Shown: piece after piece, positions 11,743 through 57,029 of the stretch | Layout of the letters: every line of letters starts with the position of its first letter | Position numbering within the stretch: position 1 is the first letter of the stretch | Source of the DNA: Torpedo marmorata | Taxonomy: Eukaryota | Reading direction: 5' to 3' | NCBI GenBank assembly: GCA_977017645.1 | Contig: OZ360221.1 | Coordinates: 203,422,001-203,486,000, forward strand | DNA length: 64,000 bases | Notes under the pieces: generated by a model | The model's database searches: none | What the model was told of the DNA's origin: nothing | The model's input: only the letters and a program-made list of their open reading frames with translations | Made by a program: the position numbers and the translations under genes

Positions 11743-12196
11743 TAGTCAATAAAAGTGGATGTTTGGAACAGAAAATTGAAGGAAATAAGATAGAATAATC
11801 TCTCTGTGCTTTGGACTGATATTTAAAATAAAATGGTGGCCATCTTGAAGATGCCTCGAGTTGGGGGCAGTTTGTAATCCACATCCATCTGCCATGAGTA
11901 ACAGCCAGAGAGGGATTTAAAGCTTCAAATCTTATAGTAAAGTGTACTATAAATACGTTGGAGAAACCATTTTTGGAAAATCAGTGATATTATTGACGGA
12001 TGTTGAGGTTGAAACTCGTTTGTGGATAGCAGCACATTACAGTCATTTGAAGTGGTAGGCATAAGTCTGTGGACTCCTTCTGTGTATCTTTGGCAAGTAA
12101 GAACTCAGATTGGAATTGCTGCTGCTGGTCCATTGGGGACTGTTGATTTGGCTAGTGTTGTGTATGCTTGAAGGACAGAGGAACAAGATGAGTAAA

Positions 12197-15100
12197 ATGG
12201 CCGCAGCAGCCTTTGATACAGCAGCCACTGATGTATCAGCAGCTGACGCAGCAACCGCTGATGTTGCTGTTGAGGACCAACGTATTGATGACATGAAGGT
12301 TACGGATATTAAAGAAGAATTGAAGCGACTGAAAAAGGACATAAGTGGAAATAAAAAGGTTCTTATCGCAAGATTGAAGCTGGCAAAGGAAGAAGAGGCA
12401 GCTTCATCAGATGAACAAGAAGATAACGTGGAAATGGCTGAAATTGTGTCACCAAATGATGAAGAAAATGATGAAGATATTGAAGAGGTTGAAGATGCAA
12501 AGGATATACAATTCGAATTGGATAAAGAGGTAAGTATGAAGACAACATATGAACTGCAGGACGAAATACAAGCAAGTGACAGTGTCTCAACTGCTGAAAG
12601 CAGGAGAAGCAAACAAAGTTCTGGTTTGAGCTCCAGGGTTTCTAGTACTTCAAGTTCTGCATCGTCACGTACAAAGATTGATTTTAAATTGGCCGCTTTT
12701 TTTGCACAACAAAAAACGCTTAAGGATAAACATATTTTAGAACAAAAGGAGGAGCAGCTAAGACAAAAGGAGGAGCAGCTAAAGGAGCAGCTAAGACAAA
12801 AGGAGGAGCAGCTAAAGGAGCAGCTAAGACAAAATGAGAAGCAGCTAAAGGAGCAGCTAAGACAAGAGAAGGAGCAGCTAAGGCAGAGAAAAGAACAGCA
12901 GGAGCTGGAAGCAAACATTGCTATTGCCAAGGCAAAAAAGAAAGCTCAATGGTATCTGGTGCTAGAAGTAAATTATCTAAAGTGTCTGATAATAAAAGGT
13001 CATATTTAAAAAAGGAGTCACAGGAAAAGAAACCAACCAAAAGGATAGATATTTTAGAACCAAGGATACAAAACTTGCATATACAAGGACAAATCTTTCA
13101 AGAGCATATTGGTATCGAGTCACATGTACCAGTGGTAACATCTGAAAGCAAAGCTGCGGCTTGGGTTCGGTCGAACGAAGCAACTTCTTTGTTATTTGAG
13201 TCAAGCATCAGAAATATGGAAGAAACTACACCAGTGAGGTTTCCAGATACATTACCTGCAACAAGAGACAGTGAACAGAGCAATGTATTGTCATCCAAGG
13301 GAAGACAAAATGAAATTGCTACATCATTGATTCAGTTACAGTCTCTCTCTTCTTTACCCAAGAAAGAGATACAAACTTTTGATGGTGATCCACTTCAGTA
13401 TCAATCATTTATGAAATCTTTCAAACGCAATATTGAAAATAAATGTCAAGATCGTGATGAATGTCTTTATTATTTGGAAATGTTCACAAAGGGACATCCA
13501 AAAGAACTGGTAAAGAGTTGTCAACAAATGTCTTCAGAAAGAGGACTAGACAAAGCTAAGGCTTTACTGGAACAACATTTTGGCAACAAGCATCGAATTG
13601 CTTTAGCTTATATAGATAAAGCTCTTAAATGGACATCAATAAAACAAAATGATGTAAAGGCTCTGCAAGAATATACTCTATTTTTAAGAGGATGTTGTAA
13701 TGCTATGGAAGATATTGATAATATTCGTGAGCTTGAAGTGCATAGTAATATGCAAATCATCTTAGAAAAATTACCTTACAAGTTATGGGCTAGATGGAGA
13801 AATTTGGCTTGTGATTTACAAGTAAATTACGGTCGAAGAGCTACCTTAAAGGATTTGGTAAATTTTCTTGAACAACAGGTGTACGTTGAAACAGATCCAC
13901 TATATGGAAATACCAGAGATAATTCAATGGGCAAAGATGTAAGGAAGTCTAATTCACAGCCTAGTCCAAAATTGAAAAGGAGTACTTTTGCTACTAATGT
14001 GTCAGTTATAAGTAAAGAAAAGGACAAAGTAAATAAGGAAAAGGAAAGTTTGCCTGATGAAAAGAGTTGTTTGTTCTGTAAAGGTGGACATGCTTTGGAA
14101 ATGTATTTACGATTGGAAAAGAAGGAACATAAGGAGATGATCGCTTTCTTAAAGGAAAATGGAATATGTTTTAGCTGTCTGTGTAAAGGGCACATCAGTA
14201 AAAACTGCGAGAAGCAAATTAATTGTAACATATGCAATTTGAAACATCCTAGAATTTTGCATATCCATAACAGAAACAAGGAATTGGAAAAGGAGCAAAC
14301 AGAAACAAAGGAAACAACAGAAAACAATGTTATAACCTCGGTTCAGACAAGTGGTCTTACCGGGGCCGGTGTGGATAACTGCAAACTTTCGATAGTGCCT
14401 GTACAAGTGAAGACCAAGAAAGGGGATGCAAAGGTAAAAACATATGCATTTCTTGACCCAGGCAGCACTGCATCTTTTTGCACGGAAGGACTAATGAATA
14501 AACTTAATATTCAAGGAAGAAAATCAAGAATTATGTTAAAAAACCATGGGACAAGAAAAGGTCGTTGAAACCAGCATTGTTTCAGGCTTAGAGGTTGCTG
14601 GATTATATGACAAAAAATTTTGTGATCTTCCAAGTTTATATACTCAGAAGACTATGCCTGTGCATGAAGGAAATATTCCTCATCAAAAGGATATCCAGCT
14701 TATCTGTGGAAGGTTTATTTACCTGAAATTAATTCTGAGATAGAAATGCTGATTGGTTCAGATGTGCCAAAGGTTTTGGAACCAATAGAAGTAATACAGA
14801 GTAGAAGGAATTGACATTACGCTATTAAAAACAAGCTTGGTTGGACAATCAATGGACCATTGGAAAGAAATAATGATATTACTCAGGAACAGTTAGCAAT
14901 AAATATTAATAGAATTTCGGTTGTGAAAGTTGAAGAGTTAAGTGAAGAGCAAAAAACTGTGAATAAGAAAATCACTTTTGAAGAAAAGAAAACAGATCAT
15001 TGTGAAAATAAATCAAGGGTATTTAAAACAACATTGAAGGAATTATTTTCACCAAAAATGGATGAAAGTGAAGTATTAGAAGATGTTGCAAATAATACTA

Positions 15101-15654
15101 TTGATTGTTCATGTGTAATTTAATCAGATACAGGAATAAAACAAGTGACTGAAAACAAATCTGAATGTAGATTTTGTAGTTCAGAGATTACAACAGACAA
15201 AGCTAATGAAGAAATATTGCAATGTGATGTAAAACTGGAGAACACAGAAAATTGTGCTGATGGAATAAAGAATAATGTGAATGATAATTTAATGCAATTG
15301 AATTCAGAGAACAAAATGTTAAAAGGGGAATTGTAAATATTAGATAATCATGAAAACAGTAAACAGAAAGATTTAATTGTAAGTAAAACTCGCAAAGTCA
15401 GAAAGCGGAAGAAAAGAATAACTGCTGAAGAAATGAATACAGTTATTGAGGAAAGAGATTCAGCATTATCAAAATGTAAAAGGTTGGAGGAAGAGATTAA
15501 TATTTTGAAAGAGAACAAGTTATTGGTTAATAACACAAAACAGTTGATTTTAAAAACCAATCAAGAATGTAAATTGAATGTTCAGCTATTAACAATGCAG
15601 AAAGAATGTGATATTGCATTGCAGAAATGTAACAAGCAAGATGAAGAAATTTAA
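12197..15654 (+). pseudogene. SAP-Gag-protease-MIPOL1-like fusion, disrupted
   Basis: Colinear with the intact ORF at 41569-45036, but with frameshifts (~12945, ~14540, ~14700) and stops (14812, 15121, 15334). Confidence 0.88.
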
Positions 15655-16059
15655 AAATTTCAAGTTTGCCACAGCAGGATTGACAATGGAAATATCAATG
15701 TATCACATGATATTTTGACTTCAAATCAAATTATTAATTTCTCGGAAAGAACTGAGACTGAATTGAAAGTTGCAAAATTGGATTTAGAATTGCAGGAAAG
15801 AGCAATAGAAACCAGAGTGGTTAAAGAGACCTGTTTATTAAAATCGAAAGGATCAAATAAATATTCAAATTCTAGTTCTAAGAGTTTAAATTCTTCACAT
15901 GAGAAGTGGAATGCTGAAGAAAGGAATAAAGTGAAACGACATGCTGAACAAGTGCCTCGTGTTAAATTCAAAAGAAAAACTGTATCTATTTTGTCTGAGG
16001 AAGATTTGAGGTTTACTGGTCGACATTTTAACTCAAAGATTATGGAGATAAAAGAACTT

Positions 16060-16245
16060 TAAAGAGACATTGTAATTATTATGGATAATTCAACTCCAAG
16101 AAACTCCTGGTTACTTGAAAAAATTATTGAGACTATTCAAGACAAAGGGACTTGTGCGTCAAGTGCGAATTAAAACTAAGACTGGCTTTCTCAATAGACC
16201 TATTAACAAGGTCTGTCTTTTGTTGGAGACAGAGGAACTTTGATA
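16060..16245 (+). pseudogene. BEL integrase C-terminal (DUF5641-like) remnant
   Basis: Reads DIVIIMDNSTPRNSWLL...GLVRQVRIKTKTGFLNRPINKVCLLLE across a frameshift; typical BEL pol terminus. Confidence 0.8.
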
Positions 16246-16448
16246 AATACAAACTGACTTTATTTGTTGTTGTATACTTCACAGGTTACAGACTTTTGTT
16301 GATTCAGAGTTATGGTAAACTCTGGTTTTATGAAGAAGGAAGAAAGAAGATTTGTATATTGTTTGAATGTTATGGTTATTGTTATTTATAATTTATAGTG
16401 TAATTATTATTTAAGACATTGCGTCTAATTATAATAATTAGGGGCCGG

Positions 16449-17100
16449 TGTAAGAGCCGTAGGCTCAATAACTTACCTTGGTCGCAGTGCTCCGATGCCT
16501 CGACGGGTTATGGAGAAGTCGCGACGTTCGTAGGCCGTCCTCGGCCTGTTTGTGCTCTGCGCATGCGCTGGAGTGCCAACGGGCGCATGCGCAGTCTGAA
16601 ATTGACGTTGTTGTGCGCGGTGCAGTATGGGAGATGTAGTATGCGCGGTGGAGCGTGCGCAGTGGAATAGGAGCATGGAGCATGCGCAAATCGGAATGAA
16701 TAGGAAAAAGATGGCAACATAGGAGGGTGAGTGAGATCACCATATCTTTTATTGACCGTTTCATAGATCGTTTCATAGATCGTTTCATAGATCGTTTCAT
16801 CGAACGTTTTATACATCGTTTCATAGAATGTTTCATTGAACATTAAACTAGTTACTTTGTGGTTTAAAATCGTTTATTTGAACATCTAAATACAGTCTAA
16901 GGAATCATTTAAAGAAACTCATCATACATCGTTTTCAAGAACCGTTTGTACTGAAGTCATTGAAGATTACTGCAAGTCACGTGTGTAAATAAAGTTTTTG
17001 AACATATTGGACTTTGTTGGTAAATTAATTGAAACGCGTCAAAGACAAGTATCTCACTTAGCCTCCAGGTGACTATTGTTGGATAGAAGTCACCATAATA
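16449..17100 (+). repeat. 3' LTR of BEL copy A
   Basis: Follows PPT-like TTAGGGGCCGG; direct repeat of 11072-11742. Confidence 0.92.
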
Positions 17101-18571
17101 GATATCCTCAACATTTCTGTTTTAATCAGGCCTCAATTATACTCGTGCCCAAGAAGAGTGTGGTAACCTGCTTAAATGATTACGAGCAGTGGCACTCACA
17201 TCTCCAGCGATGAAGTTTTTTGAGAGGGTGATGTTGAAGCATATCAGCTCCTGTCTGAGCGGCGACATGGATACATTCCAATTTGCCTACCACAGCAACA
17301 GGTCTACAGCAGATGCCATCTCACTGGCTCGACACAAAGCCCTGAAACACCTGGACAGCAAAGATGCATACATCAAGATGCTCTTTATTGACTACAGTTC
17401 AGCATTCAACACCATCATCCCCGCAAGACTGATCAGCAAACCCCAAGACCTGGGCCTCAATAGCCCATTGTGTAATTGGATCCTGGATTTTTTCACTTCC
17501 AGACCTCAATCAGTGAGGATCAGTAAGAACATCTCCTCCACAATCTCCATCAGTACCAGAGCACCACAGGGATGCATTCTTAGCACCTTGCTCTACTCAC
17601 TTTACACCTATGACTGTGTACCTTGGTGCTCCAACAACACCATCTACAAATTTACTGATGTTATCACGATAGTGGGCTGCATAAAATGGGGAAATTAGTC
17701 CACCCGCATACAGGAGGGAGATTGAAAACTTGGCTGAATGGTGTCTAACAACAACCTCGCTCTCAATGTCACCAAAACCAAGGAGCTGATTGTGGACTTT
17801 AGGAAGGGAAAACCAGAGGTGTACGATCCAGTGATCAAAGGTGGAGAGGGTGAGAAAATTTAAATTCCTGGCAGTCACTTTCTCGGACCCAACACACGAA
17901 TGTCATCATGAAGAAAGTACGTCAGCACCTCTACCTCCTCAGGAGTTTGTGGAGGTTTGGTATGACATCGGAAACCTTGGCAAACCTCTACAGATGTGTG
18001 GTGGAAAGTGTGCTGACCGGCTGCATCACAAATGGTATGGGGCACCAATACCTCTGAGTGGAAAGCCTTGCAAAAGGTAGTGGGCACAGCCCTGTACATC
18101 ACAGGCAAAATCCTCACCACATCGAGAAAATCTACATGGAGCGCTGCCGTTGGAGAGCAGCAGCAATCATCAATGATCCACACTACCCAGGACATATTCT
18201 GTTCTAGCTGTTGCCATTGGAAAGAGGTATAGGTGCCACAAGACTCATACCACCAGGTTCAGGAACAGCTGCTACCCCTCCACCATCAGACTCCGAAACA
18301 GCAAACTCAATCAAAGACTCATTTAAGGACTCTTACTTTGCACATTATTTATTACTGATTTTTTTTTTCTGTATTGCACAGTCAGTTTGTTTACATTTCT
18401 TTGTTTGTTTACATTTCTCTCTTTTGTATACTTATCTTTCCTTGAGTTCAGTTTTTTGCACTACCGATAAATTGAAATTCTGCCTGGCTCGCTGGCCAGC
18501 AGGAAAAAGAATCTCAGGGTTTTATGTTATGTCATGTATGTACTCTGATAATAAATCTGAACTTTGAACTT
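17101..18571 (+). mobile_element. Rex-Babar LINE, 3' part (RT and tail)
   Basis: ALTSPAMKFFER, QFAY, LFIDYSSAFNTI, APQGCILS, IYKFTDV (FADD equivalent), TKTKELIVDFRK; tail AATAAATCTGAACTTTGAACTT. Confidence 0.9.
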
Positions 18572-21963: not shown

Positions 21964-23560
21964 CACTGCCCTCCATAATGTTTGGGACAAAGACACTTTT
22001 TTTCCTTTATTTGCCCCTGTGCTCCACAGTTTTAAATTTGTAATCAAACAATTCACATGTGATTAAAGTGCACATTCCACAGTTTATTCAAGATTATTTG
22101 TATACATTTTGGTTTGACCATGTAGAAATTACAGCACTTTTTATACATAGTCCCCTCATTTCAGGGCACCATAATGTTTGGGACATTTGGCTTCACAGGT
22201 GTTTGTGATTACTCAGGTATGTTTAATTGCTTCATTGGTGCAGGTATAAGAGAGCTAGGCTTGCTTCTAAGCTTTTGATCACCTTTGGAGTCTGCAGTTG
22301 ACATTTTTCAACATGAGGACTAGAGTTGTGCCAATGAAAGTCAAAGAAGCCATTATGAGGCTGAAAAACAAGAATAAAACAGTAAGAGACATTGCCCAAA
22401 CTTAAATAATGTTCCAAACTGTTGATTTTGATAATCCTAAGAAGAGCGTACTGCTGAGCTCAGTAACTGCAAAGCGACTGGTAGGCCAAGGAAGACCTCC
22501 ACTGCTGGTGACAGAAGAATTCTCATCATAATGAAGAAAAATCCCCAAACGCTTGTCCGACAGATCAGAATCACTCTTCAGGAGGCAGGTGTGGATATGT
22601 CAATGACGACTGTCCGCAGAAGACTTCACAAACAGAAATACAGAGGCTGCACTGCAAGATGCAAACCATTAGTTAGCCACAGAAAGGATGGCCAGATTAC
22701 AGTTTGCTAAGAAGTATTTAAAAGAGCCTGCATAATTCTGGAAAAAGGTCTCGTAGACAGATGAGACCAAGATTAACCTGTATCAGAGTGATGGCAAGAG
22801 CAAAGTGTGGAGGTGTAAAGGAAATGCCCAAGATCCAAAGCATTCCACCTTTACCATGGTTTGCATCTTACAGTGCAGCCTCTGTATTTCTGTTCATGAA
22901 GTCTTCTGCAGACAGTAGTCATTGACATATCCACACCTGCCTCCTGAGGAGTGTTTCTGATCTGTTGAACATACGTTTGAGGATTTTTCTTCATTATGAT
23001 GAGAATTCTTCTGTCATCAGCAGTGGGGATCTTCCTTGGCTTATCAGTCCCTTTGCAATTACTGAGCTCACCAGTGCTCTCTTTCTACTTAATGATGTTC
23101 CAAACTGTTGATTTTGGTAATCCTAAGGTTTGGGTGATGTCTTACTGTTTTATTCTTGTTTTTCAGCCTCATGATGGCTTCTTTGACTTTCATTGGCACA
23201 ACTCTGGTCCTTGTGTTGAAAAATGTAAACTGCAGACTCCAAAGGTGATAAAAAGCTTCGAAGCAAGCCTAGCTCTCTTATACCTGCACCAATGAAGCAA
23301 TTAAACATACCTGAGTAATCACAAACACCTGTGAAGCCAAATGTCCCAAACATTATGGTGTCCTGAAATGAGGGAACTATGTATAAAAAGTGCTGTGATT
23401 TCTACATGGTCAAACCAAAATGTATACAAATAACCTTGAATAAAATCTGGAAAATGCACTTTAATTACATATGAATTGTTTGATTACAAATTTAAAACTG
23501 TGGAGCACAGGGGCAAATAAAGGAAAAAAAGTGTCTTTGTCCCAAACATGGAGGGCAGTG
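21964..23560. mobile_element. Tc1-like IR/DR transposon, foldback non-autonomous derivative
   Basis: TIR CACTGCCCTCCA...TGGAGGGCAGTG then TA; internal DR CATAATGTTTGGGACA; transposase N-terminus (MRTRVVPMKVKEAIMRL, GRPRKT, TDETKINLY) on +, repeated inverted in the right arm. Confidence 0.88.
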
Positions 23561-31105: not shown

Positions 31106-31213
31106 CTGTACATATTTACCTAAACCTCTATATTGTACCTCTACATGGTGACCTCGGACGTATCTGCGATCAGACATTACTCGATCAGGTGTAAGTTGAG
31201 GTATGGCTGTACA

Positions 31214-31253
<40 letters not shown>

Positions 31254-31361
31254 TGTACAGCCATACCTCAACTTACACCTGATCGAGTAATGTCTGATCG
31301 CAGATACGTCCGAGGTCACCATGTAGAGGTACAATATAGAGGTTTAGGTAAATATGTACAG
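31106..31361. repeat. Perfect 256-bp palindrome centred on (TA)19
   Basis: 109-bp arm 31106-31214 is the exact reverse complement of 31253-31361; spacer (TA)19 at 31215-31252 is itself palindromic. Confidence 0.95.
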
Positions 31362-36932: not shown

Positions 36933-39900
36933 ACCATATAACCATATAACATTTACAGCACAGAAACAGGCCAGTTCGGCCCTTCGAGTCCATGCCGAAC
37001 ACATTCTCCCACCTAGTCCCACTGACCCACACCCGGCCCATAACCCTCCACACTTCTCTCGTCCATACACCTATCCAACTTTTCCTTAAACATTAAAATT
37101 GAACCTGAATCTACCACTTCGGCCGGAAGCTCGTTCCACCCTCCTACCACCCTCTGAGTGAATAAATTCCCCCTCATGTTTCCTCTAAACTTTTCCCCCT
37201 TCAATCTCAATCCATGCCCTCTTGTTTGAATCTTCCCCTCTCTCAATGGAAAAAGCCTGTCCACATTGACTCTATCTGTCCCCTTCATAATTTTAAATAC
37301 CTCTATCAAATCACCCCTCAACCTTCTACGCTCCAGGGAATAAAGTCCCAACCTGTTCAACCTTTCCCTATAACTCAAACCCAGAAACCCAGGCAACATT
37401 CTTGTAAATCTCCTCTGCACTCTCTTTATTCTGTTTATATCCTTCCTGTAATTCGGTGACCAAAACTGCGCACAATATTCCAAATTTGGCCTCACCAATG
37501 CCTTATACAACTTCAACATGACATCCCAACTCCTATATTCAATACTCTGATTTATGAAGGCCAACATACCAAATGCCTTCTTCACCACCTTATCTACGTA
37601 TGACTCAACTTTCAGGGAATTATGTACCAGAATTCCTAAATCCCTCTGTTCTACTGCACTTCTCAATTGTCTTCCATTTAACATGTATGACCTTTGCTGA
37701 TTAATCCTACCAAAATGTAGCATCTCACATTTATCAGTATTAAATTCCATCTGCCATGTTTCCGCCCACTCTTCTAACTGACCAATATCCCCCTGCAAGC
37801 TTTGATATCCTTCTTCACTGTCCACAACACCACCAATCTTCGTATCATCTGCATACTTAATAATCCAATTTACCACCCTATCATCTAGATCATTAATATA
37901 TATGATAAACAACAATGGACCCAGTACCGATCCCTGAGGCACTCCACTAGTCACCGGCCTCCAATTTGACAAACAATTTTCCACCACTACTCTCTGGCAT
38001 CTCCTATCCAACCATTGTTGAATCCATTTCACTACTTCGTCGTTAATACCTAATGCTTGAACCTTCCTAACGAGCCTCTTATGCGGAACCTTGTCAAGTG
38101 CCTTACTAAAGTCCATATAGACAACATCCACAGCCTTCCCCTCGTCAACCCTCTGAGTAACCACATCAAAAAACTCTATGAGATTTGTCAAACATGATCT
38201 ACCACGAACAAAACCGTGTTGACTACTCCTAATCAATGCTTGTCTTTCCAAATAACTGTATACACCATCTCCAAGAACACTCTCCATTAATTTACCTACT
38301 ACTGATGTCAGACTCACAGGCCTATAATTTCCAGGTTTACTTTTGGAGCCCTTCTTAAACAGCGGGACAACATGAGCTACCCTCCAATCCTCTGGCACCC
38401 TCCCCACCCCCCCACCCCGTGGCCAGTGACATTTTAAATATTTTTGTCAGAGCCCCCACTATTTGTACACTAACCTCCCTCAGGGTCCTCGGGAATATCC
38501 TGTCAGGACCTGGAGATTTATCCACCTTTATACTCTTTAAAATAGCCAATACTACCTCCTCATTAATCTTTATATTATCCATGACCTCCCTGCCAGATTG
38601 CCTTACTTCACCTGGCTCAATATTCCTTTCCTTTGTAAATACTGAAGAAAAAAATTCATTTAAAATCTCCCCCATCTCCTCTGACTTCTCACATAGCCTA
38701 CCCGTCTGATCCTCAATGGGCCCAATTTTATCCCTCACTATTCTTTTGCTTTTAATGTACCTGTAGAAACTCTTTGGATTTATTTTTACCTTGCCTGCCA
38801 AAGCAGCCTCATATCTCCTTTTAGCCTTTCTAATTTCTTTCTTAAGATATTTTTACACTCCTTATATTCCTCAAGGACCTCATCTATTCCCTGCTGTCTA
38901 TACCTGTTGTACACATCCCTCTTCCTCCAAACCAAATTCCCAATATCCTTTGAAAACCAAGGCTCCCTATATTTTCTAACTCTTCCTTTAATCCTCAAAG
39001 GGACGAACCGACTCTGTACTCTCAAGATTTCCCCTTTGAATATCCTCCATTTATCTGTGACATCCTTTCCTAAAAATAAATTATCCCAATCCACACCCTC
39101 TAAATCCTTCCTCATCTCCTCAAAATTTGCCTTATTCCAATCAATAATCTCCACCTTAGGCCCAGCCCTATCCTTCTCCATTATCAACCTAAAACTAATG
39201 GTATTATGATCACTTGACCCAAAGTGTTCCCCAACACAAACCTCTGTCACCTGACCTATCTCGTTCCCAAATAGGAGATCCAATACTGCCCCCTCTCTCG
39301 TCGGTTCTTCTCTGTATTGGTTTAGAAAACTTTCCTGAACACATTTGACAAACTCCAACCCATCCTGCCCTATTACAGTATGGGCGTCCCAGTCAATATG
39401 TGGAAAGTTAAAATCACCTATAATCACCACCTTATGCTTATTACACATATATTCTATCTCCTTACAAATTTCCTCCTCTAATTCCCTCTGCCCATTCGGT
39501 GGTCTATAATACACTCCCATTAGTGTTTTCATGCCTTTCCCATTCCTCAATTCCACCCAAATAGCCTCACTGGACGAGCCCTCCAATCTATCCTGCCATA
39601 GCACTGCTGTAATGCTTTCTCTAACAAGCACTGCGACCCCTCCACCTTTTATCCCCCCTGTTCTATCACGCCTAAAACAACGGAATCCAGGAATATTTAG
39701 CTGCCAATCACGCCCCTCCTGCAACCAAGTTTCACTGATGGCTACAATATCATATTTCCATGTATCAATCCATACTCTAAGCTGATCCACCTTTCTTATA
39801 ATGCTTCTTGCATTGAAATATATACACTTGAGAGAATGTCCCCCACGTACACTCCTTTGATTACCCTTTCCTTCATTAACTTTAACATTCTGGTTCCTCT

Positions 39901-40094
39901 CTTCCTTCAAATCTAGGTGTTCTTCTACCCTACTCTCCACATTCACATTCTGATTCCCACCCCCCTGCCAAACTAGTTTAAACCCTCCCCAATAGCTCTA
40001 GCAAACCTGCCTGCCAGGATATCGGTCCCCCTCCAGTTCAAGTGCAGCCCGTCCCTTTTGTACAGGTCAGACCTTCCCCAGAAGAGATCCCAAT
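36933..40094 (-). mobile_element. CR1 LINE, 3' part (end of ORF1, ORF2 APE-RT, tail)
   Basis: YFNARSI, AISETWL, IGDFN, KSPGPD, PQGSVLGP, KYADD, RPNLEYCAQFWSP; two frameshifts (~38810, ~38410); tail (GTTATATG)n. Confidence 0.95.
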
Positions 40095-40786
40095 TATAAG
40101 TAACGGTGACTTCGCTCCACCAATAGTCACCTGGAGGCTAAGTGTGGTCCTTGCTTTTGACGCGTTTTATTTAGTTTACTGACAAAGTTCAATATGTTCA
40201 AAAACCTTTATTTTCACACATGACTTGCAGTAATCTTCAATGACTTTAATATAAACAGTTCTTGTAAACGATGTATGATAAGTTCCTTTAAATTATTCCT
40301 TAAACAATTCCAAAACGATATGAAACACTGTAGATGATGTTAAAGTTATAGAAACATTATAAAACGGTATAAAACGGTCAATAAAGATGTGGAGACCAGA
40401 CTCACCCCCCATACATCTCTATCCTTTCTTTGTTCTCTCTCTCCAATGGTTCTGCGCATGCTCCAACGCGCATACTACAATTCCCAGCCTCCCACGCGCA
40501 CTATGACGTCACTCTATACTGCGCATGCGCCCGTCGGCACTCCCGCGCATGCGCATATCAAAGAACGGGCCGACGACGGCCCACAGAACAACGCAAGCGC
40601 TCCAAGGCCCGACGTGGCCTCGGAGCGCGCTGAGGACGGCCCAGTGAACAACGCGAGCGCTCAATGGCCCGACGTGGCCCAGGAGCGCTCCGAGGACGGC
40701 CCACCGAACCACGCGAGCGCTCCAAGGCCCGACGAGACATCGGAGCGCCGCAACAACGGTAAGTTAACGAGCCTACGGCTCTTACA
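40095..40786 (-). repeat. 3' LTR of BEL copy B
   Basis: Same length and sequence as 45484-46175; three ~60-bp CpG-rich tandem units at ~40572-40750. Confidence 0.93.
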
Positions 40787-40982
40787 CCGGCCCCTAATTA
40801 TTATAATTAGACGTAATGTCTTGAATAATAATTACACTATAAATAATAATAACCATAACATTCAAAACAATACAAATCTTCTTTCTTCCTTCTTCATAAA
40901 TCTAGAGTTTACCATAACTCTGATTCAACAAAAGTCTGTAACCTGTGAAATGTACAACAACAAATAAAGTCAGTTTACATTT

Positions 40983-41175
40983 ATCAAAGTTCCTCTGTCT
41001 CCAACAAAAGGCAGACCTGGTTAATAGGTCTGCTTAGAAAACCAGTCTTAGCTTTAATTCGCACTTGACGCACAAGTCCTCTTTGTCTTGAAAAGTCTCA
41101 ATAATCTTTTCCAAGTAACCAGGAATTTCTTGAAGTTGAACCATCCATAACAATCACAATGTCTCTTTAAAGTTC
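40983..41175 (-). pseudogene. BEL integrase C-terminal (DUF5641-like) remnant
   Basis: DIVIVMDGSTSRNSWLLGK...GLVRQVRIKAKTGFLSRPINQVCLLLE, with frameshifts. Confidence 0.8.
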
Positions 41176-41202
41176 TTTTATCTTCACAATCCGAGTCAAA
41201 CG

Positions 41203-41568
41203 TCAACCAGTAAACCTCAAATCCTCCTCAGACAAAATAGATACAGTTTTTCTTTTGAATTTAACACAAGGCACTTCTTCAGCACGTCGTTTCACTTTAT
41301 TCCTTTCTTCAGTATTCCACTTCTCATGTGAAGAATTTAAACTCTTAGAATTAGAATTTGAATATTTATTTGATTCTTTCGATTTTAAACAGGTCTGTTT
41401 AACCACTCTGGTTTCTAATGCTCTTTCCTGCAATTCTAAATCCAATTTCGCAATTTTCAATTCAGTCTCAGCTCCTTCCGAGAAATTAATAATTTGATCT
41501 GAAGTCAAAATATCATATGGTACATTGATATTTCCATTGTCAATCCTGTCGCGACAAACTTGAAATTT
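41203..41568 (-). other. In-frame open continuation after the TAA stop of the fusion ORF (coiled-coil, partly MIPOL1-like)
   Basis: ORF 41203-41508 is in the same frame as 41569-45078, with no stop between; same layout at 15655-16062. Confidence 0.55.
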
Positions 41569-44500
41569 TTAAATTTCTTCGTCTTGCTTGTTACATTTCT
41601 GCAATGCAATCTCACATTCTTTCTGCATTGTTAATTGTTGAACATTCAATTTACATTCTTGATTGGTTTTAAAAGTCAACTGTTTTGTGTTATTAACCAA
41701 TAACTTGATCTCTTTCAAAACATTAATCTCTTCCTCCAACCTTTTACATTTTGATAATGCTGAATCTCTTTCCTCAATAACTGTATTCATTTCTTCAGCA
41801 GTTATTCTTTTCTTCCGCTTTCTGACTTTGCGAGTTTTACTTACAATTAAATCTTTCTGTTTACTGTTTTCTTGTTTATTTAATATTTCCAATTCTCCTT
41901 TCAACATTTTGTTCTCTGAATCATTATTCTTTATTCCATCAGCACAATTTTCTGTGTTCTCCATTTTTACATTACATTGCAATAATTCTTCATTAGCTTT
42001 GTCAATTGTAATATCTGAACTACAAAATCTACATTCAGATTTGTTTTCAGTCACTTGTTTTATTCCTGTATTTGATTCAATTACACATGAATGATCAAAA
42101 GCATTATTTGCAACATCTTCTAATACTTCACTTTCATCCATTTCTGACGAAATTAATTTCTTCAATGTTGTTTCAAATACCACTGATTTATCGTTACATT
42201 GATCTGTTTTCTTTTCTTCATAAGTGATTTTCTTATTCACGGTTTTTTGCTTTTCTCTTAACTCTTCAAATTTCTCAACTGAAATTTTATTAACATTTAT
42301 CGCTACCTGTGCCTGAGCAATATCATTATTTCTTTCCATTGGTCCATTGATTGCCCAACCAAGTATGGTTCTAATAGCGTAAGGTCCATTCCTTTTACTT
42401 TCTATTACTTCTTTTGGTACCAAAACCTTTGGCACATCTGAACCAATCAGCATTTCTATCTCAGAATTAATTTCAGGTAAATAAACCTTCCACAGATAAG
42501 CTAAATGATGGATATCACTTTGATGAGGAATATTTCCTTCGTTCACAGGCATAGTCTTCTGAGTATATACACTTGGAAGATCACAAAATTTTTTGTCATC
42601 CAATCCAGCAACCTCTAAGCCTGAAACAATGTTAGTTTCAACAACCTTTTCTTGTCCCATGGTTTTTAACATAATTCTTGATTTTCTTCCTTGAATATTA
42701 AGTTTATTCATTAGTCCTTCCGTGCAAAAAGATGCAGTGCTACCTGGGTCTAGAAGTGCATATGTTTTTACTATTGCATCCCCTTTCTTGGCCTTAACTT
42801 GTACAGGCACTATTGAAAGTTTGCAGTTATTCACCCCGGCCCCAGTAAGACCACTTGTCTGAACCGAGGTTATAACATTATTTTCTGTTGTTTCCTTTGT
42901 TTCTGTTTGCTCCTTTTCCAATTCCTTGTTTCTGTTATGGATATGCAAAATTCTAGGATGTTTCAAATTGCATATGTCACAATTAATTCGCTTCTCACAG
43001 TTTTTACTGATGTGCCCTTTACACAGACAGCTAAAACATATTCCATTTTCCTTTAAGAAAGCGATCTTTTCCTTATGTTCCTTCTTTTCCAATTGTAAAC
43101 ACATTTCCAAAGCATGTCCACCTTTACAGAACAAACAACTCTTTTCATTAGGCAAACTTTCCTTTTCCTTATTTATTTTGTCCTTTTCTTTACTTATAAC
43201 TTGCACATTAGTAGCAAAAGTACTCCTTTTCACTTTCGGACTAGACTGTGAATTAGACTTCCTTACATCTTTGCTCATTGAATTATCTCTGGTATTTCCA
43301 TATAGTGGATCTGTTTCAACATACACTTGTCGTTCAAGAAAATTTACCAAATCCTTTAAAGTAATTCTTCGACCATAATTTACTTGTAAATCACAAGCCA
43401 AATTTCTCCATCTATCCCATACCTTGTAAGGTAATTTTTCTAAAATGATTCGCATATTACTATGCACTTCAAGCTCACGAATATTATCGATTTCTTCCAT
43501 AGCATTACAACATCCTCTTAAAAACAAAGTATATTCTTGCAAAGCTTTTATATCATTTTGTTTTATTGATGTCCATTTAAGAGCTTTATCCATATAAGCT
43601 AAAGCAATTCGATGTTTGTTGCCAAAATATTGTTCCAATAAAGCCTTAGCTTTGTCTAATCCTCTTCCTGAAGACATTTGGTTACAACTTTTTACCAATT
43701 CTTTTGGATGTCCCTTTGTGAACATTTCCAAATAATAAAGACATTCATCTCGATCTTGGCATTTATCTTCAATATTGCGTTTGAAAGATCTCATAAATGA
43801 TTGATATTGAAGTGGATCACCATTAAAAGTTTGTATCTCTTTCTTGGGTAAAGAAGAGAGAGACTGTAACTGAAACAATGATGCAGCAATTTCATTTTGT
43901 CTTTCCTTGGATGACAATACATTGCTCTGTTCACTGTTTCGTGTTGTATGCAATGTATCTGGAAACCTTACTGGTGTAGTTTCTTCCATATTTCTGATGC
44001 TTGACTCACATAACAAAGAAGCTACTTCGTTCGACCGAACCCAATCTGCAGCTTTGCTTTCAGATGTTACCATTGGTACATGTGACTCGATACCAAAATG
44101 CTCTTGAAAGGTTTGACCTTGTATATGTAAGTTTTGTATCCTTGGTTCTAAAATATCTATCCTTTTGGTTGGTTTCTTTTCCTGTGACTCCTTTTTTAAA
44201 TATGACCTTTTATTATCAGACAATTTAGATGATTTACTGCTAGCACCAGATACCATTGAGCCTTCTGTTGCTTTCTTTTTTGCCTTGGCAATAGCAATGT
44301 TTGCTTCCAGCTCCTGCAGTTCTTTTCTCTGCCTTAGCTGCTCCTTCTCTTGTCTTAGCTGCTCCTCCTTTTGTCTTAGCTGCTCCTTTAGCTGCTTCTC
44401 ATTTTGTCTTAGCTGCTCCTCCTTTTGTCTTAGCTGCTCCTTTAGCTGCTCCTCATTTTGTCTTAGCTGCTCCTTTAGCTGCTCCTCATTTTGTCTTAGC

Positions 44501-45036
44501 TGCTCCTCCTTTTGTCTTAGTTGTTCCTCTTCTTGTTCTAATATAAATTTATCCTTAAGCGTTTTTTGTTGTGCAAGAAGAGCGGCCAAGTCAACTTCAA
44601 TCTTTGTACGTGACGATGTAGAACTTGAAATACGAGAAACTCTGGAGCTCGAACCAGAACTTCTTTTGCTTCTCCTGCTTTCAGCATTTGAGACACTGTC
44701 ACTTGCTTGTATTTCGTCCTGCAGTTCATATGTTGTCTTCATACTTACCTCTTTATCCAATTCAAATTGTTCATCATTTGTTGATACAATTTCAGCCATT
44801 TCCAAGTTATCTTCTTGTTCAAATAATGAAGCTGCCTCTTCATCCTTTGCCTGCTTCAATCTTTCAATAAGAACCTTCTTATTTCCACTTATGTCCTTTT
44901 TCAGTCGCTTCAATTCTTCTTTAATATCCGCAACCTTCATGTCTTCAATACGTTGGTCCTCAACAGCAACATCAGCGGTTGCTGCGTCAGCTGCTGATAA
45001 ATCAGTAGCTGCTGTATCAGTAGCTGCTGCGGCCAT
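41569..45036 (-). CDS. BEL polyprotein: SAP domain, coiled-coil repeats, Gag (DUF1759-like, three zinc knuckles), aspartic protease, captured MIPOL1-like coiled-coil
   Basis: Open 1169-aa frame (likely ATG 45036, context AAAATGG). SAP: MKVADIKEELKRLKKDISGNKKVLIERL. Gag: LPKKEIQTFNGDPLQYQSF, CLFCKGGH, CFSCLCKGH, CDICNLKH. Protease: YALLDPGSTASF, IGSD, GPYAIRTILGW. C-terminus RITAEEMNTVIEERDSALSKCKRLEEE. Confidence 0.9.
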   Translation of the reverse strand: MAAAATDTAATDLSAADAATADVAVEDQRIEDMKVADIKEELKRLKKDISGNKKVLIERLKQAKDEEAASLFEQEDNLEMAEIVSTNDEQFELDKEVSMKTTYELQDEIQASDSVSNAESRRSKRSSGSSSRVSRISSSTSSRTKIEVDLAALLAQQKTLKDKFILEQEEEQLRQKEEQLRQNEEQLKEQLRQNEEQLKEQLRQKEEQLRQNEKQLKEQLRQKEEQLRQEKEQLRQRKELQELEANIAIAKAKKKATEGSMVSGASSKSSKLSDNKRSYLKKESQEKKPTKRIDILEPRIQNLHIQGQTFQEHFGIESHVPMVTSESKAADWVRSNEVASLLCESSIRNMEETTPVRFPDTLHTTRNSEQSNVLSSKERQNEIAASLFQLQSLSSLPKKEIQTFNGDPLQYQSFMRSFKRNIEDKCQDRDECLYYLEMFTKGHPKELVKSCNQMSSGRGLDKAKALLEQYFGNKHRIALAYMDKALKWTSIKQNDIKALQEYTLFLRGCCNAMEEIDNIRELEVHSNMRIILEKLPYKVWDRWRNLACDLQVNYGRRITLKDLVNFLERQVYVETDPLYGNTRDNSMSKDVRKSNSQSSPKVKRSTFATNVQVISKEKDKINKEKESLPNEKSCLFCKGGHALEMCLQLEKKEHKEKIAFLKENGICFSCLCKGHISKNCEKRINCDICNLKHPRILHIHNRNKELEKEQTETKETTENNVITSVQTSGLTGAGVNNCKLSIVPVQVKAKKGDAIVKTYALLDPGSTASFCTEGLMNKLNIQGRKSRIMLKTMGQEKVVETNIVSGLEVAGLDDKKFCDLPSVYTQKTMPVNEGNIPHQSDIHHLAYLWKVYLPEINSEIEMLIGSDVPKVLVPKEVIESKRNGPYAIRTILGWAINGPMERNNDIAQAQVAINVNKISVEKFEELREKQKTVNKKITYEEKKTDQCNDKSVVFETTLKKLISSEMDESEVLEDVANNAFDHSCVIESNTGIKQVTENKSECRFCSSDITIDKANEELLQCNVKMENTENCADGIKNNDSENKMLKGELEILNKQENSKQKDLIVSKTRKVRKRKKRITAEEMNTVIEERDSALSKCKRLEEEINVLKEIKLLVNNTKQLTFKTNQECKLNVQQLTMQKECEIALQKCNKQDEEI

Positions 45037-45483
45037 TTTACTCGTCTTGTTCCTCTTTCCTTCAAGCATACACAACACTAGTCAAACAACAGTCCCCAAT
45101 GGACCAGCGGCAGCAATTCCAATCTGTGTTCTTACTTGCTAAAGATACACAGAAGGAGTCCACAGACTTATGCCTACCACTTCTAATGACTGTAATGTGC
45201 TGCAATCCTTAAACGAGTTTCAACCACAACATCCGTCACTAATATCACTGATTTTCCAAAAATAGTTTCTCCAACGTATTTATAGGACACTTTATTATAA
45301 GATTTGAAGCTTTAAATCCCTCTCTGGCTGTTATTCATGGCAGATGGAAGTGGATTACAAACTGCCCCCAACTCGAGGCATCTCCAAAATGGCCACCAAT
45401 TTATATCAGTCCAAAGCACAGAGAGTTTTTTTCTATCTTCTTTCCTTCAAACTTCTGTTCCAAACAGCCAGCCCTTTATTGAC

Positions 45484-46175
45484 TATAAGTAACGGTGACT
45501 TCGCTCCACCAATAGTCACCTGGAGGCTAAGTGTGGTCCTTGCTTTTGACGCGTTTTATTTAGTTTACTGACAAAGTTCAATATGTTCAAAAACCTTTAT
45601 TTTCACACATGACTTGCAGTAATCTTCAATGACTTTAATATAAACAGTTCTTGTAAACGATGTATGATAAGTTCCTTTAAATTATTCCTTAAACAATTCC
45701 AAAACGATATGAAACACTGTAGATGATGTTAAAGTTATAGAAACATTATAAAACGGTATAAAACGGTCAATAAAGATGTGGAGACCAGACTCACCCCCCA
45801 TACATCTCTATCCTTTCTTTGTTCTCTCTCTCCAATGGTTCTGCGCATGCTCCAACGCGCATACTACAATTCCCAGCCTCCCACGCGCACTATGACGTCA
45901 CTCTATACTGCGCATGCGCCCGTCGGCACTCCCGCGCATGCGCATATCAAAGAACGGGCCGACGACGGCCCACAGAACAACGCAAGCGCTCCAAGGCCCG
46001 ACGTGGCCTCGGAGCGCGCTGAGGACGGCCCAGTGAACAACGCGAGCGCTCAATGGCCCGACGTGGCCCAGGAGCGCTCCGAGGACGGCCCACCGAACCA
46101 CGCGAGCGCTCCAAGGCCCGACGAGACATCGGAGCGCCGCAACAACGGTAAGTTAACGAGCCTACGGCTCTTACA
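45484..46175 (-). repeat. 5' LTR of BEL copy B
   Basis: Minus strand starts TGTAAGAGCC, ends TTACTTATA; several TGCGCATGCGC palindromes. Confidence 0.93.
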
Positions 46176-46686
46176 CCAATGATCCACAAATGTGAACCCC
46201 TGCCCCCAGCACCAACTGTTTAGCCACGCATTCATCCTCCACATCTTCCTATTCCTACCCTCTCTAGCGTGTGGCACAGGCAGCAATCCTGAGATTACCA
46301 CCCTCGAGGTCCTGCTTTTTAACTTCCTTCCTAACTCCTTATATTCCTTCTTCAGGACCTCATTCCCATTTCTTTCTATGTCATTGGTCCCCACGTAGAC
46401 CACGACACCTGGCTGCTCGCCCTCCCCCTCCAGAATGCTGAGTACTCGATCAGAGACATCCCTGACCCTGGCACCCGGAAGGCAACATACCAACCGGGAG
46501 CTCCGATCTTGTCCAGCAAACCTTCTATCTGTTCCTCTAACCAGCGAGTCCCCAATTACAAAAGCTCTCCTCTTTTCCCCCCTTCCCTTCTGAGCCAAGG
46601 GGCCATCCCCGTGCCAGAGACCTGACCCCCGCGACTTGTCCCTTGTAGGTTGTCCCCCCCAACAGTATCCAAAGCAGTATACTTAT
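46176..46686 (-). mobile_element. CR1 LINE, 5' part (ORF1 SGNH esterase)
   Basis: RRAFVIGDSLVRGTDRRF, CCLPGARVRDV, VYVGTND, FVDHW; joins 40094 across the BEL insertion. Confidence 0.92.
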
Positions 46687-47726
46687 TATTATACCAAACA
46701 ATGGTAAATTAAAAATAATAGTTTTTATTGAACTATTAATAACATAACATTTCTTACTTATCTCTAAACTTAACTCTAACTTAAACCTCACTATGCGCAA
46801 ATGTAAATGTGTGTGTGTTAAAGTCCAAACTATTTCAGTTTAAACTTGAGTCTGAAAAGTCAACTTTAAAGTCCAGTTTCAAACTTCTTGTTGAACTTCA
46901 GGATCTTTTAAAATTGTGGTTCAGAAGTAATTATAAAGCAAGAGTGAAGCACCCGATTTCTTTCAAACTCACTCGTCTTTTGATGAGTTGTCTTTCAGAG
47001 AGATATTCTTCTTCATGCGAGTGATTTCACAAACTCCCTCTTATCTTGCCTAAGAGTTCCAGAGTCTGTTTTTCACGATGATTTCTTTCTTAATCGAAAG
47101 TAACACATGAAGCTGCCCTCTTTTCTTAGAGGCAGTCGGAAGTGGTCTTACTTATTTAAAAGCCACTTATGTTGTGTATCTCCTATGATAAGGATGATAC
47201 AAGACAGAACAGCATCTCCCTCTTTCCAGAGATTACTGCTCCAATCCTGTCTTTCCAGGATGTCAAATTTTCTTAAACTCCCCTTTGTCTCTGAGTTCGA
47301 TAATATATTTCTTGCATATCTCTCATGTCACAATGTATTTGACATCATTTCTGTCTTTGAAGTTCATAATGTCTTCTTCACACTTATGTGCTAAAATCAT
47401 CTCAGTCCACCTAGACTCCGTGATTTCTATGCACATGGACACAAAATGGAACTACGTTTACACAGGTGCTTCTGAGCCAACACCTATTGTTTTCAGTATC
47501 TCAAGAACCATCATAAAGCCTTTCATCTCTTGGCTTCAACTGCAATCAGCAGACATTCTGTCTCTGAAAAAGACCATCTGCCATCTCAAAGAACCATGTG
47601 TGTTTAAAATGCAAATGTATTGTCTTTGTGCCCCTGAAACCACCCAAAACTAACTTACTAAGTCATCTCTAGATGAAATATAATTTTAACATTATACTAA
47701 AGATTAATCATAGCACATTCGTCACA
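46687..47726 (-). mobile_element. Possible solo LTR
   Basis: Minus strand starts TGTGACGA, has AATAAA near the far end, ends GGTATAATA; CR1 similarity stops here; no TSD found. Confidence 0.35.
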
Positions 47727-55534: not shown

Positions 55535-55945
55535 CATCTCCAGGGCAAAGTCATACCGACGCCTGTCCGCCCGCTCTCCAAGGCAACATCACACCACTGC
55601 CTATCCCTAACCTCAGGGACAACATCACACCGCCGCCTAATCCCTAATCTCTGGGGCAACATCACACCGCCGCCTAATTCATACTCTCCGGGGCAATGCC
55701 ACACCACCGCCTGTCCGCCCGCTCTCCGGGGCAACATCACACCATCGTCTGTTCAACCTCTCTCCATGACAACGTCACACCGAAGCCTGTCATCCCGTCT
55801 CTGGTGCAAAATCACACCTCCACCTGACCACCAGCTCTTGCAACGTCACACAGCCACTGGGTCCGACCCCCACTCTGGCAACTCCACACCACCGCCTGTC
55901 TGTTCGCCTGCTCTCCGGGGGAATGATTCAACCCCACCTGTCTGA
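55535..55945 (+). repeat. Degenerate ~38-bp minisatellite, ~10 units
   Basis: Recurring unit like CTCCGGGGCAACATCACACCGCCGCCTGTCCGCCCGCT. Confidence 0.8.
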
Positions 55946-56460
55946 CCTTCCTCTGCAGGCATATGTAATGTGGAGGATTATATGTGTCATGTGATCCTAT
56001 TGGCGGACACGTAGTTGGAAGACGCCTCACCTGCCAATCAAGGTCAAGCTCCACCCACAGATTAGCACACATGTTACCATTGGCCCCTTTAATCACCTAA
56101 CCCATACCCGGGCTGGACTCTCCAGCTGATTTCACGATAAAGCCCATCACATATAGACCATCTGCCTCTTTCTTCCTTCTTCCCGTGACAAACCCCAGCT
56201 CCACACAAGATTGTGAACCATCGGCGATGCTGGAGAGTCATTGGTAAGGCGTGCACTGACAAAGGGTTGAGAGTTGTAGTATTGGGTATGTAGAAATCAC
56301 TGTTCCTACAGTACTCTAGTTTAGTTAAGAGCTGTGCCTGCACTGTATCAAGGGGTGGCGGGTATTGTATTTTATTCCTTGATTGTAAAGCTATCTCCTC
56401 CGCGGGTGGTTGCGAGTATTGGGTAATTGTTGTGTCTGATGCAATTGTATTGTGCGATCC

Positions 56461-57029
56461 TGCGTGAGTATGTGAGTGTGTGTGTGTGTGAGTGAGAGTG
56501 TGCGTGTATATGTGTGTGTGAGTGAGAGTGTGCATGGGCGTGTGAGTGAGTGAAAGTGTGTGAGTGTGAAAGTGTGTGTGTGTGAGAGTGTGCGTGTGAG
56601 AGTGTGTGCGTGTGTGTGTGAGAGAGTGAGTGTGTGCGTGTGAGAGTGTATGCATGTGTGTGTGAATGAGTGTGTGTGTGAATGTGTGAGTGAGATTGTG
56701 TGCATGTAAGTGTGTGTGTGAGCGTGTGTGTGTGTGTGAGTGTGTGCGTGTGAGAGTGTGTGAGTGAGAGTGAGTGTGTGCATGTGAGAGTGTGTGCATG
56801 TGTGTGTGTGTGTGTACGTGTGTGTGAGTGAGNNNNNNNNNNNNNNNNNNNNNNNNNNNNNNNNNNNNNNNNNNNNNNNNNNNNNNNNNNNNNNNNNNNN
56901 NNNNNNNNNNNNNNNNNNNNNNNNNNNNNNNNNNNNNNNNNNNNNNNNNNNNNNNNNNNNNTGTGTCTCTGTGCATGTGTGTTTGTGTGTGTGCGTGAGT
57001 GTGTGTGCGTGTGTGAGAGTGAGTGTGTG
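56461..57029. repeat. (TG)n/(TGAG)n microsatellite containing an assembly gap (N 56833-56961)
   Basis: Directly visible. Confidence 0.97.

Follow-up and report, generated by a model that had tools for sequence, protein, structure and literature searches.

A BEL/Pao retrotransposon family of a ray in which pieces of host BRCA1 and MIPOL1 stand in place of Pol, with a putative own-LTR primer

Several known systems resemble the BEL/Pao retrotransposon described here from a 64,000-nt stretch of the genome of Torpedo marmorata (assembly GCA_977017645.1, contig OZ360221.1, positions 203,422,001 to 203,486,000; hereafter the window). Acutely transforming retroviruses with gag-onc fusions are replication-defective, carry host sequence on Gag in place of pol and depend on a helper. 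Similar too are maize Bs1 and the chimeras formed by long terminal repeat (LTR)-mediated retroposition, which in the available text of Tan et al. 2016 (PMC5131818) include the Pao elements BATUMI and BEL18_AG. In the cases covered there, partial spliced RNAs of at least two unlinked genes lie between discontinuous halves of an LTR element, in sense orientation and often in frame, and the chimeras can retropose again with common switch points. Pseudogenes derived from circular RNA (circRNA) likewise place a non-colinear exon–exon junction in the genome (Dong et al. 2016, PMC4897178). Among those of the mouse, flanking LTR sequence is enriched; one circle can give rise to many copies, and the mechanism was left open (PMC4897178). 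Self-priming, in which the primer site pairs with the element's own 5′ LTR transcript and not with the 3′ end of a tRNA, is described for Tf1/sushi, Tj1 and Tcn1 among Ty3/gypsy elements and for TAR, Houba and Osr-1 among copia elements, in those parts of PMC6317226 and PMC4600332 available to us. Finally, the TR-GAG elements, in the accessible portion of Chaparro et al. 2015 (PMC4350172), are non-autonomous, with one open reading frame (ORF), a retained Gag, LTRs, a polypurine tract (PPT) and a 5-bp target-site duplication (TSD).

The element at 40095–46175 on the minus strand (copy A; 6081 nt, 6.08 kb) shares features with each of these. We consider it very likely that copy A belongs to a non-autonomous BEL/Pao family of a ray, in which Pol was swapped for pieces of host RNA and which was copied in trans. 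Its features lie on the minus strand throughout. A single ORF runs from SAP through Gag and protease to a BRCA1 piece and a MIPOL1 piece, spanning 41569–45081 as 1170 residues from stop to stop and 41569–45036 as 1155 residues from the methionine at 45036; an initial annotation, made from the sequence alone, had called this ORF of more than 1150 residues open, and rightly so. Gag contains the BEL capsid-like region (DUF1759, 43297–43884, E 1.3e-6) and triple Cys-His nucleocapsid boxes (42943–43137), typical of BEL/Pao Gag and given as a hallmark of that group in the available text of PMC554778. The aspartic protease region (42247–42900) is weak in Pfam (E 0.03) and displays LLDPGS at 42739–42756 and LIG at 42433–42450, the LLDxG plus LIG pattern that the same text reports for BEL proteases. 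It is also homologous to BEL polyproteins: residues 400–1155 gave 169 protein matches, the best being BEL/Pao polyproteins, and one full-length BEL polyprotein (P0002) matched at 59% over Gag and protease. LTRs of 692 nt with TG...TA ends, a PPT and a TSD complete the picture, the LTR length falling within the 0.2–1.2 kb range of Belpaoviridae in the International Committee on Taxonomy of Viruses (ICTV) profile (PMC8742986).

The protease, reverse transcriptase (RT), RNase H and integrase order of autonomous members is absent from copy A, of which only an integrase C-terminal relic is left. Copy A is a non-autonomous BEL/Pao derivative, not an autonomous member. The relic, a frameshifted DUF5641 at 40990–41202, was recovered by tblastn with residues 1935–1994 of P0002 (E 1.6e-12), whose DUF5641 lies at residues 1903–1996. 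None of the coding-strand frames of copy A, three in all, contains an RT motif (Y[VIM]DD) or an integrase one (D[YF]FGP, SDNG), and the full-length BEL polyprotein aligns to the window only across Gag-protease and the integrase C-terminal tail. Both results agree with the initial annotation, in which RT, RNase H and the integrase DDE core were missing. Its description of the element as Gag and protease only holds for the presence of those two parts; it does not hold for about 230 residues of the ORF and about 60 codons past the stop, which are host-derived, nor for the integrase relic at about 40990–41200. The annotation also passed over the capture of host genes, the scrambled MIPOL1 order, a second copy in the window and the self-complementary primer site, all described below.

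For the majority of the 120 relatives listed, homology to the ORF stops at about residue 930, just past the protease. None of these 120 aligns along the captured tail, the best alignments reaching no further than query residue 995. Five short relatives (P0001, P0004, P0005, P0010, P0021) that might have been Gag-protease-only kin with the same tail proved to be truncated copies of ordinary BEL elements.

In place of RT, RNase H and most of integrase, copy A carries, in frame with Gag-protease and in sense orientation, first a piece of BRCA1 and then a piece of MIPOL1. Pol has been replaced by pieces of two host genes. The BRCA1 fragment (41851–42246), fused in frame straight after the protease, corresponds to residues ~199–354 of P0244, its sole match among 1.84 billion proteins (E 1.2e-13; 43% in tblastn). 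P0244 is BRCA1: it has a RING and tandem BRCT domains, and PDB chains of BRCA1 match it at 1e-66 and 1e-37; the captured piece contains neither RING nor BRCT. Residues 931–1155 find MIPOL1 of rays and sharks in all ten of their matches, the best being that of Narcine (E 2e-26). The first MIPOL1 segment (41549–41859; Narcine residues ~449–553; E 2e-26) joins three exons without introns and is identical to Narcine at 66 of 102 positions. The second (41374–41548; Narcine residues ~295–376, from upstream exons) lies past the ORF stop and has an in-frame deletion of 27 codons. A tree of the MIPOL1 piece and 15 reference proteins places the piece as sister to Narcine (ultrafast bootstrap 100) on a branch of 0.48 substitutions per site, and the piece has the one-residue gap specific to Narcine. 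Its position on a long branch beside Narcine indicates that the capture is old and came from the electric-ray lineage.

The arrangement is that of an LTR-mediated retrocopy, partial intronless host mRNA between discontinuous halves of an LTR element; intron loss is deduced for MIPOL1 from isoform-defined borders, and is not established for BRCA1. Somewhat more firmly than the account as a whole, we hold that RT, working within a particle, jumped from element RNA to BRCA1 mRNA, on to MIPOL1 RNA and from there returned to the element at the 3′ end of integrase. Donor and acceptor residues overlap at the protease/BRCA1 and BRCA1/MIPOL1 joints. This overlap is one seen in protein sequence only. 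Between the MIPOL1 piece and the integrase relic lie about 55 open codons (41206–41373) with no match in Pfam, ESM Atlas or the stored protein set.

A second family member allows the history of this Pol-less form to be read. Copy B (11072–17100, plus strand) is older and decayed, with LTRs at 11072–11744 and 16449–17100, a TSD of GATAT and an ORF broken by 3 stops and several frameshifts. It lies on the opposite strand from copy A, in a different long interspersed nuclear element (LINE). The insertion is flanked by 11067–11071 and 17101–17105, and the 3′ LTR, though 2 nt shorter than the 5′ one, still has the TA end. Copy B's LTRs differ from each other at 20 of 647 positions (Kimura two-parameter distance, K2P, 0.032). 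The two copies are 94% identical in their interiors and just 84% identical, with many gaps, in their LTRs, and they have their internal junctions and ORF-ending stop in common. Since two insertions carry the same junctions, the Pol-less form replicated after it had lost Pol; it had a single origin and has been copied in trans at two or more different times. The initial annotation's view that Pol must be supplied in trans is borne out by copy B, with the same junctions and a different TSD, strand and LTR age. Two points weigh on the other side, namely that only two copies are seen and that no helper is present in the window, where no BEL RT was found.

The order of the MIPOL1 segments is itself informative. 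Copy A runs through Narcine residues ~449–553 first and then returns to ~295–376, so that at 41548/41549 (15674/15675 in copy B) the end of a downstream exon is joined to the start of an upstream one. Segment 1 spans exon borders, placed by isoform pairs of named species, without introns. Its last residue coincides with an exon border at which the skipping isoforms Hemitrygon X4 and Cetorhinus X5 end. The first residue of segment 2 coincides with another, marked by a one-residue tandem-acceptor difference between Cetorhinus X6 and X7, and the MIPOL1 N-termini of Rhincodon and Chiloscyllium diverge at the same point. At the junction copy B reads H-S-R, where back-splicing predicts Y-S-R. Given this non-colinear joining of an exon 3′ end to an upstream exon 5′ start, as in circRNA-derived pseudogenes, with borders placed by isoforms, the MIPOL1 template was probably a circular RNA formed by back-splicing, with RT reading through the junction. 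Mouse Mipol1 is reported to give an exonic circRNA in the accessible text of PMC9888537.

The principal alternative is that RT switched template once more, at a short microhomology within a linear mRNA, or that a host allele has tandemly duplicated exons. Judging from the isoforms, each of the two exon borders probably ends in AG, which would offer a few bases of microhomology; the element has other jumps and an internal deletion; and non-colinear junctions can arise in other ways (Dong et al., PMC4897178). A further point against back-splicing is that the borders were taken from predicted protein isoforms rather than host DNA. Against a linear jump, the junction meets two such borders at once, in the same phase and with no slack in copy B, an outcome for which our rough, uncomputed estimate for a random jump is well under 1%, and all of the captured MIPOL1 falls within the exon span of such a circle. 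We regard the alternative as unlikely, though a serious contender, and continue to favour a circular template.

How the family begins minus-strand synthesis is a separate question. BEL/Pao elements are primed by tRNA-Arg or tRNA-Gly according to the ICTV profile, which calls their replication poorly understood (PMC8742986). Copy A has no 18-nt site complementary to the 3′ end of either tRNA. Its primer-binding position (45474–45483) begins with GT, not TGG, and is complementary to a motif in its own LTR, 10 nt by Watson–Crick pairing plus one G·U. The motif occupies LTR positions 401–410, at 45766–45775 in the 5′ LTR and 40377–40386 in the 3′ LTR, upstream of AATAAA, as in Tf1-type elements. 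In copy B the match is 11 nt, to a motif at 11369–11379 and 16746–16756 in its LTRs. No other internal position scores as high in either copy (0/4671 and 0/4678), and when the LTR is compared with the 5′ untranslated region (UTR), the primer pair is the sole match of at least 8 nt in both; no auxiliary duplex of that length, as in Tf1, was found between them. Between the copies, primer site and motif each differ by one base, a compensating indel, and each primer site fits its own LTR better than that of the other copy (9 nt). The Tf1 self-primer is 11 nt long. From complementarity of this kind we think it likely that the minus-strand primer is, in the manner of Tf1, 11 nt of RNA transcribed from the family's own LTR and not a tRNA.

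More distant relatives offer a comparison. Contigs in GTDB scanned for BEL homology yielded nine loci (L001–L009), presumably eukaryotic contaminants, and four were taken into the primer test (L002, L004, L006, L007). L001, L008 and L009 were left out for want of a definable primer site, L003 for an incomplete LTR in which no match to its primer site was seen, and L005 for an 11-nt score that came from an unanchored scan of an undefined LTR. In all four, an 11-nt complement to the primer site appears only once LTR sequences on the two sides of a GT..AG interval are brought together, the interval measuring 399 nt in L002, 251 nt in L004, 76 nt in L006 and 625 nt in L007. Shuffled LTRs reached 11 nt in 6/600, 9/600, 0/600 and 8/600 trials respectively. 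A tRNA-type Gypsy element in the window, as a control, gave 5 nt, a score reached by 381/600 shuffles. The donor reads GTRAGT in three of the four testable loci, and the interior starts with GT rather than TGG in copies A and B and in four of the five relatives whose start is seen, L004 beginning with AA. We infer that in these distant autonomous relatives the primer 11-mer would be assembled by splicing out an LTR intron, and that copies A and B are intron-less.

A number of points weigh against own-LTR priming and its spliced form. With G·U pairs allowed, shuffles reach the observed score in 6/500 trials for copy A and 4/500 for copy B, so the null is a weaker one. Folding is equivocal: motif and primer site pair with a probability of 0.44–0.66 in copy A and 0.95 in copy B when 150 nt of downstream sequence is included, of at most 0.09 with 40–80 nt, and of at most 0.04 with an RNA start 20 nt further upstream. 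A TATA box was looked for and not found. Among the relatives, the L007 donor is non-consensus, the L004 site came from a scan and sits 1 nt off, with no AATAAA after its acceptor, and one of 30 off-diagonal cross-family BEL pairs also reaches 11 nt. The splicing idea was formed on L006, L007 and L002, three of the four test loci, and the relatives are only 25–32% identical to copy A in Gag-protease.

The complementarity might then have no priming role, a tRNA half or other host RNA acting as primer and the pairing being incidental or serving packaging or strand transfer. The tRNA-Arg/Gly priming of the ICTV profile (PMC8742986) speaks for this, as does folding support that varies with the window chosen. 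On the opposite side, the sites differ among five families, and each still matches its own LTR over 10–11 nt from the first or second internal base; the indel between A and B is compensated; and Rfam has no match within 39500–46800. The 64-kb window contains no tRNA gene. We assign this alternative a minor share of belief and keep own-LTR priming as the preferred reading. Neither self-priming nor a spliced primer was found for BEL/Pao in the literature searched, with subscription journals, Repbase, GyDB and supplements outside its scope, and the terms primer, PBS (primer-binding site) and tRNA have 0 occurrences in the available text of PMC554778, PMC3118150 and PMC12440569.

Some further observations concern these contigs and the LTR. 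All nine loci lie on contigs filed as bacterial genomes that bear animal-type BEL/Pao elements, presumably through host contamination. The L001 3′ LTR has an inverted repeat of ~24 nt (~2413–2436 and 2673–2696) with the TTGAC/GTCAA core of copy A's primer pair; the contig ends at this repeat, leaving the LTR end undefined. The L007 LTR intron holds an 11-mer identical to the copy B motif, and at 2903–5408 this circularised BEL contig has a 5′ leader of ~1.2 kb past the LTR, with tandem repeats and a possible extra ORF of less than 250 residues. In copy A, a 7-bp U5 hairpin (GGTGACT...AGTCACC, LTR positions 656/676) lies immediately before the primer site, at ~45494–45520, and copy B has the same hairpin at LTR positions 639/659.

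Copy A is the younger insertion. As the initial annotation had noted by eye, its LTRs (3′, 40095–40786; 5′, 45484–46175) show no differences: pairwise comparison gives 692/692 identical positions, and the exact repeat extends by chance for 2 nt more, to 694. The TSD, likewise called perfect there, is CCAAT on both sides (40090–40094 and 46176–46180) within a CR1 LINE ORF1, and when the empty site is rebuilt the LINE frame runs through the insertion point. The 95% bound on LTR divergence is below 0.43%, some 7 times younger than copy B, and chance identity over 692 nt at copy B's age is excluded (P = 4e-10). With the rate of 7e-10 per generation from a pedigree of the epaulette shark (in the available text of PMC10587355; a shark, not a ray), that bound still allows up to ~3 million generations. 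We use relative ages alone, because the shark rate makes copy B implausibly old. The claim of a very recent insertion consequently stands on the identical LTRs and the roughly sevenfold difference from copy B, and in relative terms only, with ~3 million generations possible. Identical ORF translations across the two LTRs, also cited for recency, are real and follow trivially from LTR identity, the antisense frame having no Pfam match. That a young Gag-protease element in need of a helper inserted recently is correct, but ordinary.

Assembly collapse, polishing or gene conversion could instead have made the LTRs identical as an artefact, leaving copy A not especially young. The window does come from a scaffold with an N gap (56833–56961). 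The same assembly nonetheless separates the LTRs of copy B and those of the Gypsy element (14/452 mismatches), the copy A ORF is open where copy B has its stops and frameshifts, and the TSD is perfect, all of which make an artefact rather improbable.

Other details of the insertion complete its description. The LTR ends read TG...TA on the coding strand, instead of the canonical TG...CA, in both copies (46175/45484; 11744/17100). The PPT (40787–40799) abuts the 3′ LTR and is the same in copy B. AATAAA occurs at LTR positions 575 and 616, and a 60-nt tandem array of three units at 40569–40748 in the 3′ LTR is lacking from copy B. An antisense LTR ORF (40344–40967) was rejected as a gene, having no Pfam match and containing this array. 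Both BEL copies sit in LINE coding sequence, and two insertions in a LINE-rich window cannot show preference. Upstream in the ORF, a SAP domain (44848–44949; Pfam E 2.8e-8) lies in an N-terminus of ~100 residues that stands in place of the usual BEL Gag N-terminus. This N-terminus has no match among the 120 BEL relatives listed (best E 0.33), and a search for its donor gave only the MKL1 SAP in the PDB (E 7e-5) and generic SAP clusters in ESM Atlas (0.88). It may resemble the N-termini of SAFB and SLTM. A coiled-coil expansion in Gag consists of 21/33-nt tandem repeats (44325–44536), with unit numbers that vary between the two copies.

Selection between copies A and B differs along the ORF. 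In the capsid/zinc-knuckle region, omega is 0.31 by the Nei–Gojobori method (NG86; Fisher p 1e-4) and 0.52–0.58 after transition correction (p 0.02–0.04), and purifying selection there is supported. In the protease, omega is 0.50 (NG86, p 0.035). Decay of copy B after insertion dilutes the Gag signal. Two results weigh against selection on Gag-protease: the transition-corrected protease value is 0.71–0.76 and not significant, and synonymous divergence is greater in Gag-protease (0.10–0.12) than in the captured tail (~0.06). Given this excess, part of the signal in Gag could come from recombination with helpers.

The captured tail has an omega of about 1 or above and retains roughly one stop where 4.4–6.8 are expected under neutrality (P 0.006–0.06), a deficit that is partly ascertainment, because copy A was chosen for its open frame. 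We infer that the tail is filler, its residues unconstrained and its frame mostly kept open, for instance against nonsense-mediated decay. The stop that ends the ORF (41569–41571) is the same in both copies, 8 codons before the MIPOL1 junction, and the frame stays open for 121 more codons beyond it. Programmed readthrough of this stop was considered and rejected, as post-stop omega exceeds 1 (3 synonymous against 17 non-synonymous differences).

A different view would make the chimera a host-selected gene, like maize Bs1, or have the BRCA1 and MIPOL1 pieces act in host pathways. Both captures are sense and in frame, and the frame outlasted neutral expectation, as such a view would have it. The captured tail's omega of about 1 or more, the lack of RING and BRCT in the BRCA1 piece, and the decay of copy B, as a dead insertion would decay, speak against it, and we find it less probable even than an assembly artefact. 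Weakest is the idea that one full-length BEL element integrated and only then lost its pol, an idea that can be set almost entirely aside: such loss is the commonest origin of pol-less copies, and truncated relatives are frequent among the protein matches, yet Pol here was exchanged for spliced host RNA and not merely deleted, and copy B, with its own TSD, strand and LTR age and every junction in common with copy A, already contradicts it.

We therefore return to a helper-dependent chimera and propose the following course for it. RT within a particle would have left element RNA just past the protease and entered a co-packaged BRCA1 mRNA, moved on to MIPOL1 RNA and re-entered the 3′ end of integrase. 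The resulting chimera, retaining LTRs, primer site and PPT, could later be copied by the RT and integrase of an autonomous relative. Its 5′ LTR would drive genomic RNA that is translated into SAP-Gag-protease plus filler, and its Gag would join the single-ORF Gag-Pol of the helper in a particle and help to package its own RNA. The chimera may also supply extra Gag to the helper (compare the available text of PMC11302176). By analogy with Tf1, helper RT/RNase H would cut the RNA after the self-paired 11-mer, which then primes; the plus strand would start at the PPT, and helper integrase would insert the product with a 5-bp duplication. On a wider scale, we speculate that a large part of BEL/Pao self-primes, often through an 11-nt primer made by LTR-intron splicing that gates replication, with the ray family as an intron-less, helper-dependent offshoot that recorded the copying of a circRNA and a BRCA1 mRNA. 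We see this broader proposal as evenly poised between right and wrong.

Other elements share the window. At 1–5454 (plus strand) lies a Gmr1-type Ty3/gypsy element with a SCAN-like Gag, a protease, and an integrase placed before an RT remnant and RNase H; its RT catalytic core is missing, making it a second RT-less LTR element in the window. Its LTRs differ by K2P 0.032, and its TGG-type primer site is presumably of the tRNA-Pro type. A near-palindrome of 1.6 kb (21964–23560; 410-nt arms, 96%) is a fold-back derivative with a transposase remnant, whose ends and remnant we take to be Tc1/mariner-like from their motifs. A perfect palindrome at 31106–31361 (128-nt arms, no spacer, (TA)n centre) is a young hairpin element or an assembly artefact, and 55537–55950 is an array of degenerate repeats of ~37–38 nt.

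If these readings are correct, their consequences are broad. A self-primer assembled by splicing is a specific prediction, testable on thousands of annotated BEL elements and on RNA-seq sets, and self-priming would explain why filters based on tRNA primer sites fail on BEL elements. For circRNA retrotransposition, a back-splice-type junction inside an LTR element that is complete and has its TSD suggests template switching within LTR particles as a route. BRCA1 and MIPOL1 transcripts would have been co-packaged in the ray germ line, and their fragments would have spread in multiple copies; such fragments can mislead gene annotation and, we speculate, could yield small RNAs against those genes.

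Set beside the known systems, the ray family differs from each in particular ways. The concept of TR-GAG, to which the initial annotation had likened it, does not extend to membership: TR-GAG elements, in the accessible text of PMC4350172, are plant elements of less than 4 kb with a Copia or Gypsy Gag, selected for having no protease similarity, whereas copy A has 6081 nt, a protease and a BEL Gag. Unlike gag-onc retroviruses, it has no envelope, and its captured residues are not conserved, giving no sign of an onc-like function. The Tf1 group belongs to other superfamilies than BEL/Pao, and differs further in that the complement here, a putative primer, is split by an LTR intron in four relatives. 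Unlike the pseudogenes of Dong et al., the non-colinear junction lies within a complete LTR element with its TSD, in frame with Gag-protease and beside a second captured gene. Compared with the chimeras in the available text of Tan et al., copy A keeps Gag-protease intact, with Gag under selection; its captures replace exactly the RT–RNase H–integrase core, one of them is non-colinear, and its host is a cartilaginous fish, outside the species list of that paper. No BEL family resembling copy A was found in the literature searched. Multi-gene capture by LTR elements is already known; what is valuable and directly testable at this locus is the probable capture of a back-spliced RNA, together with the putative self-primer and its spliced form in relatives.

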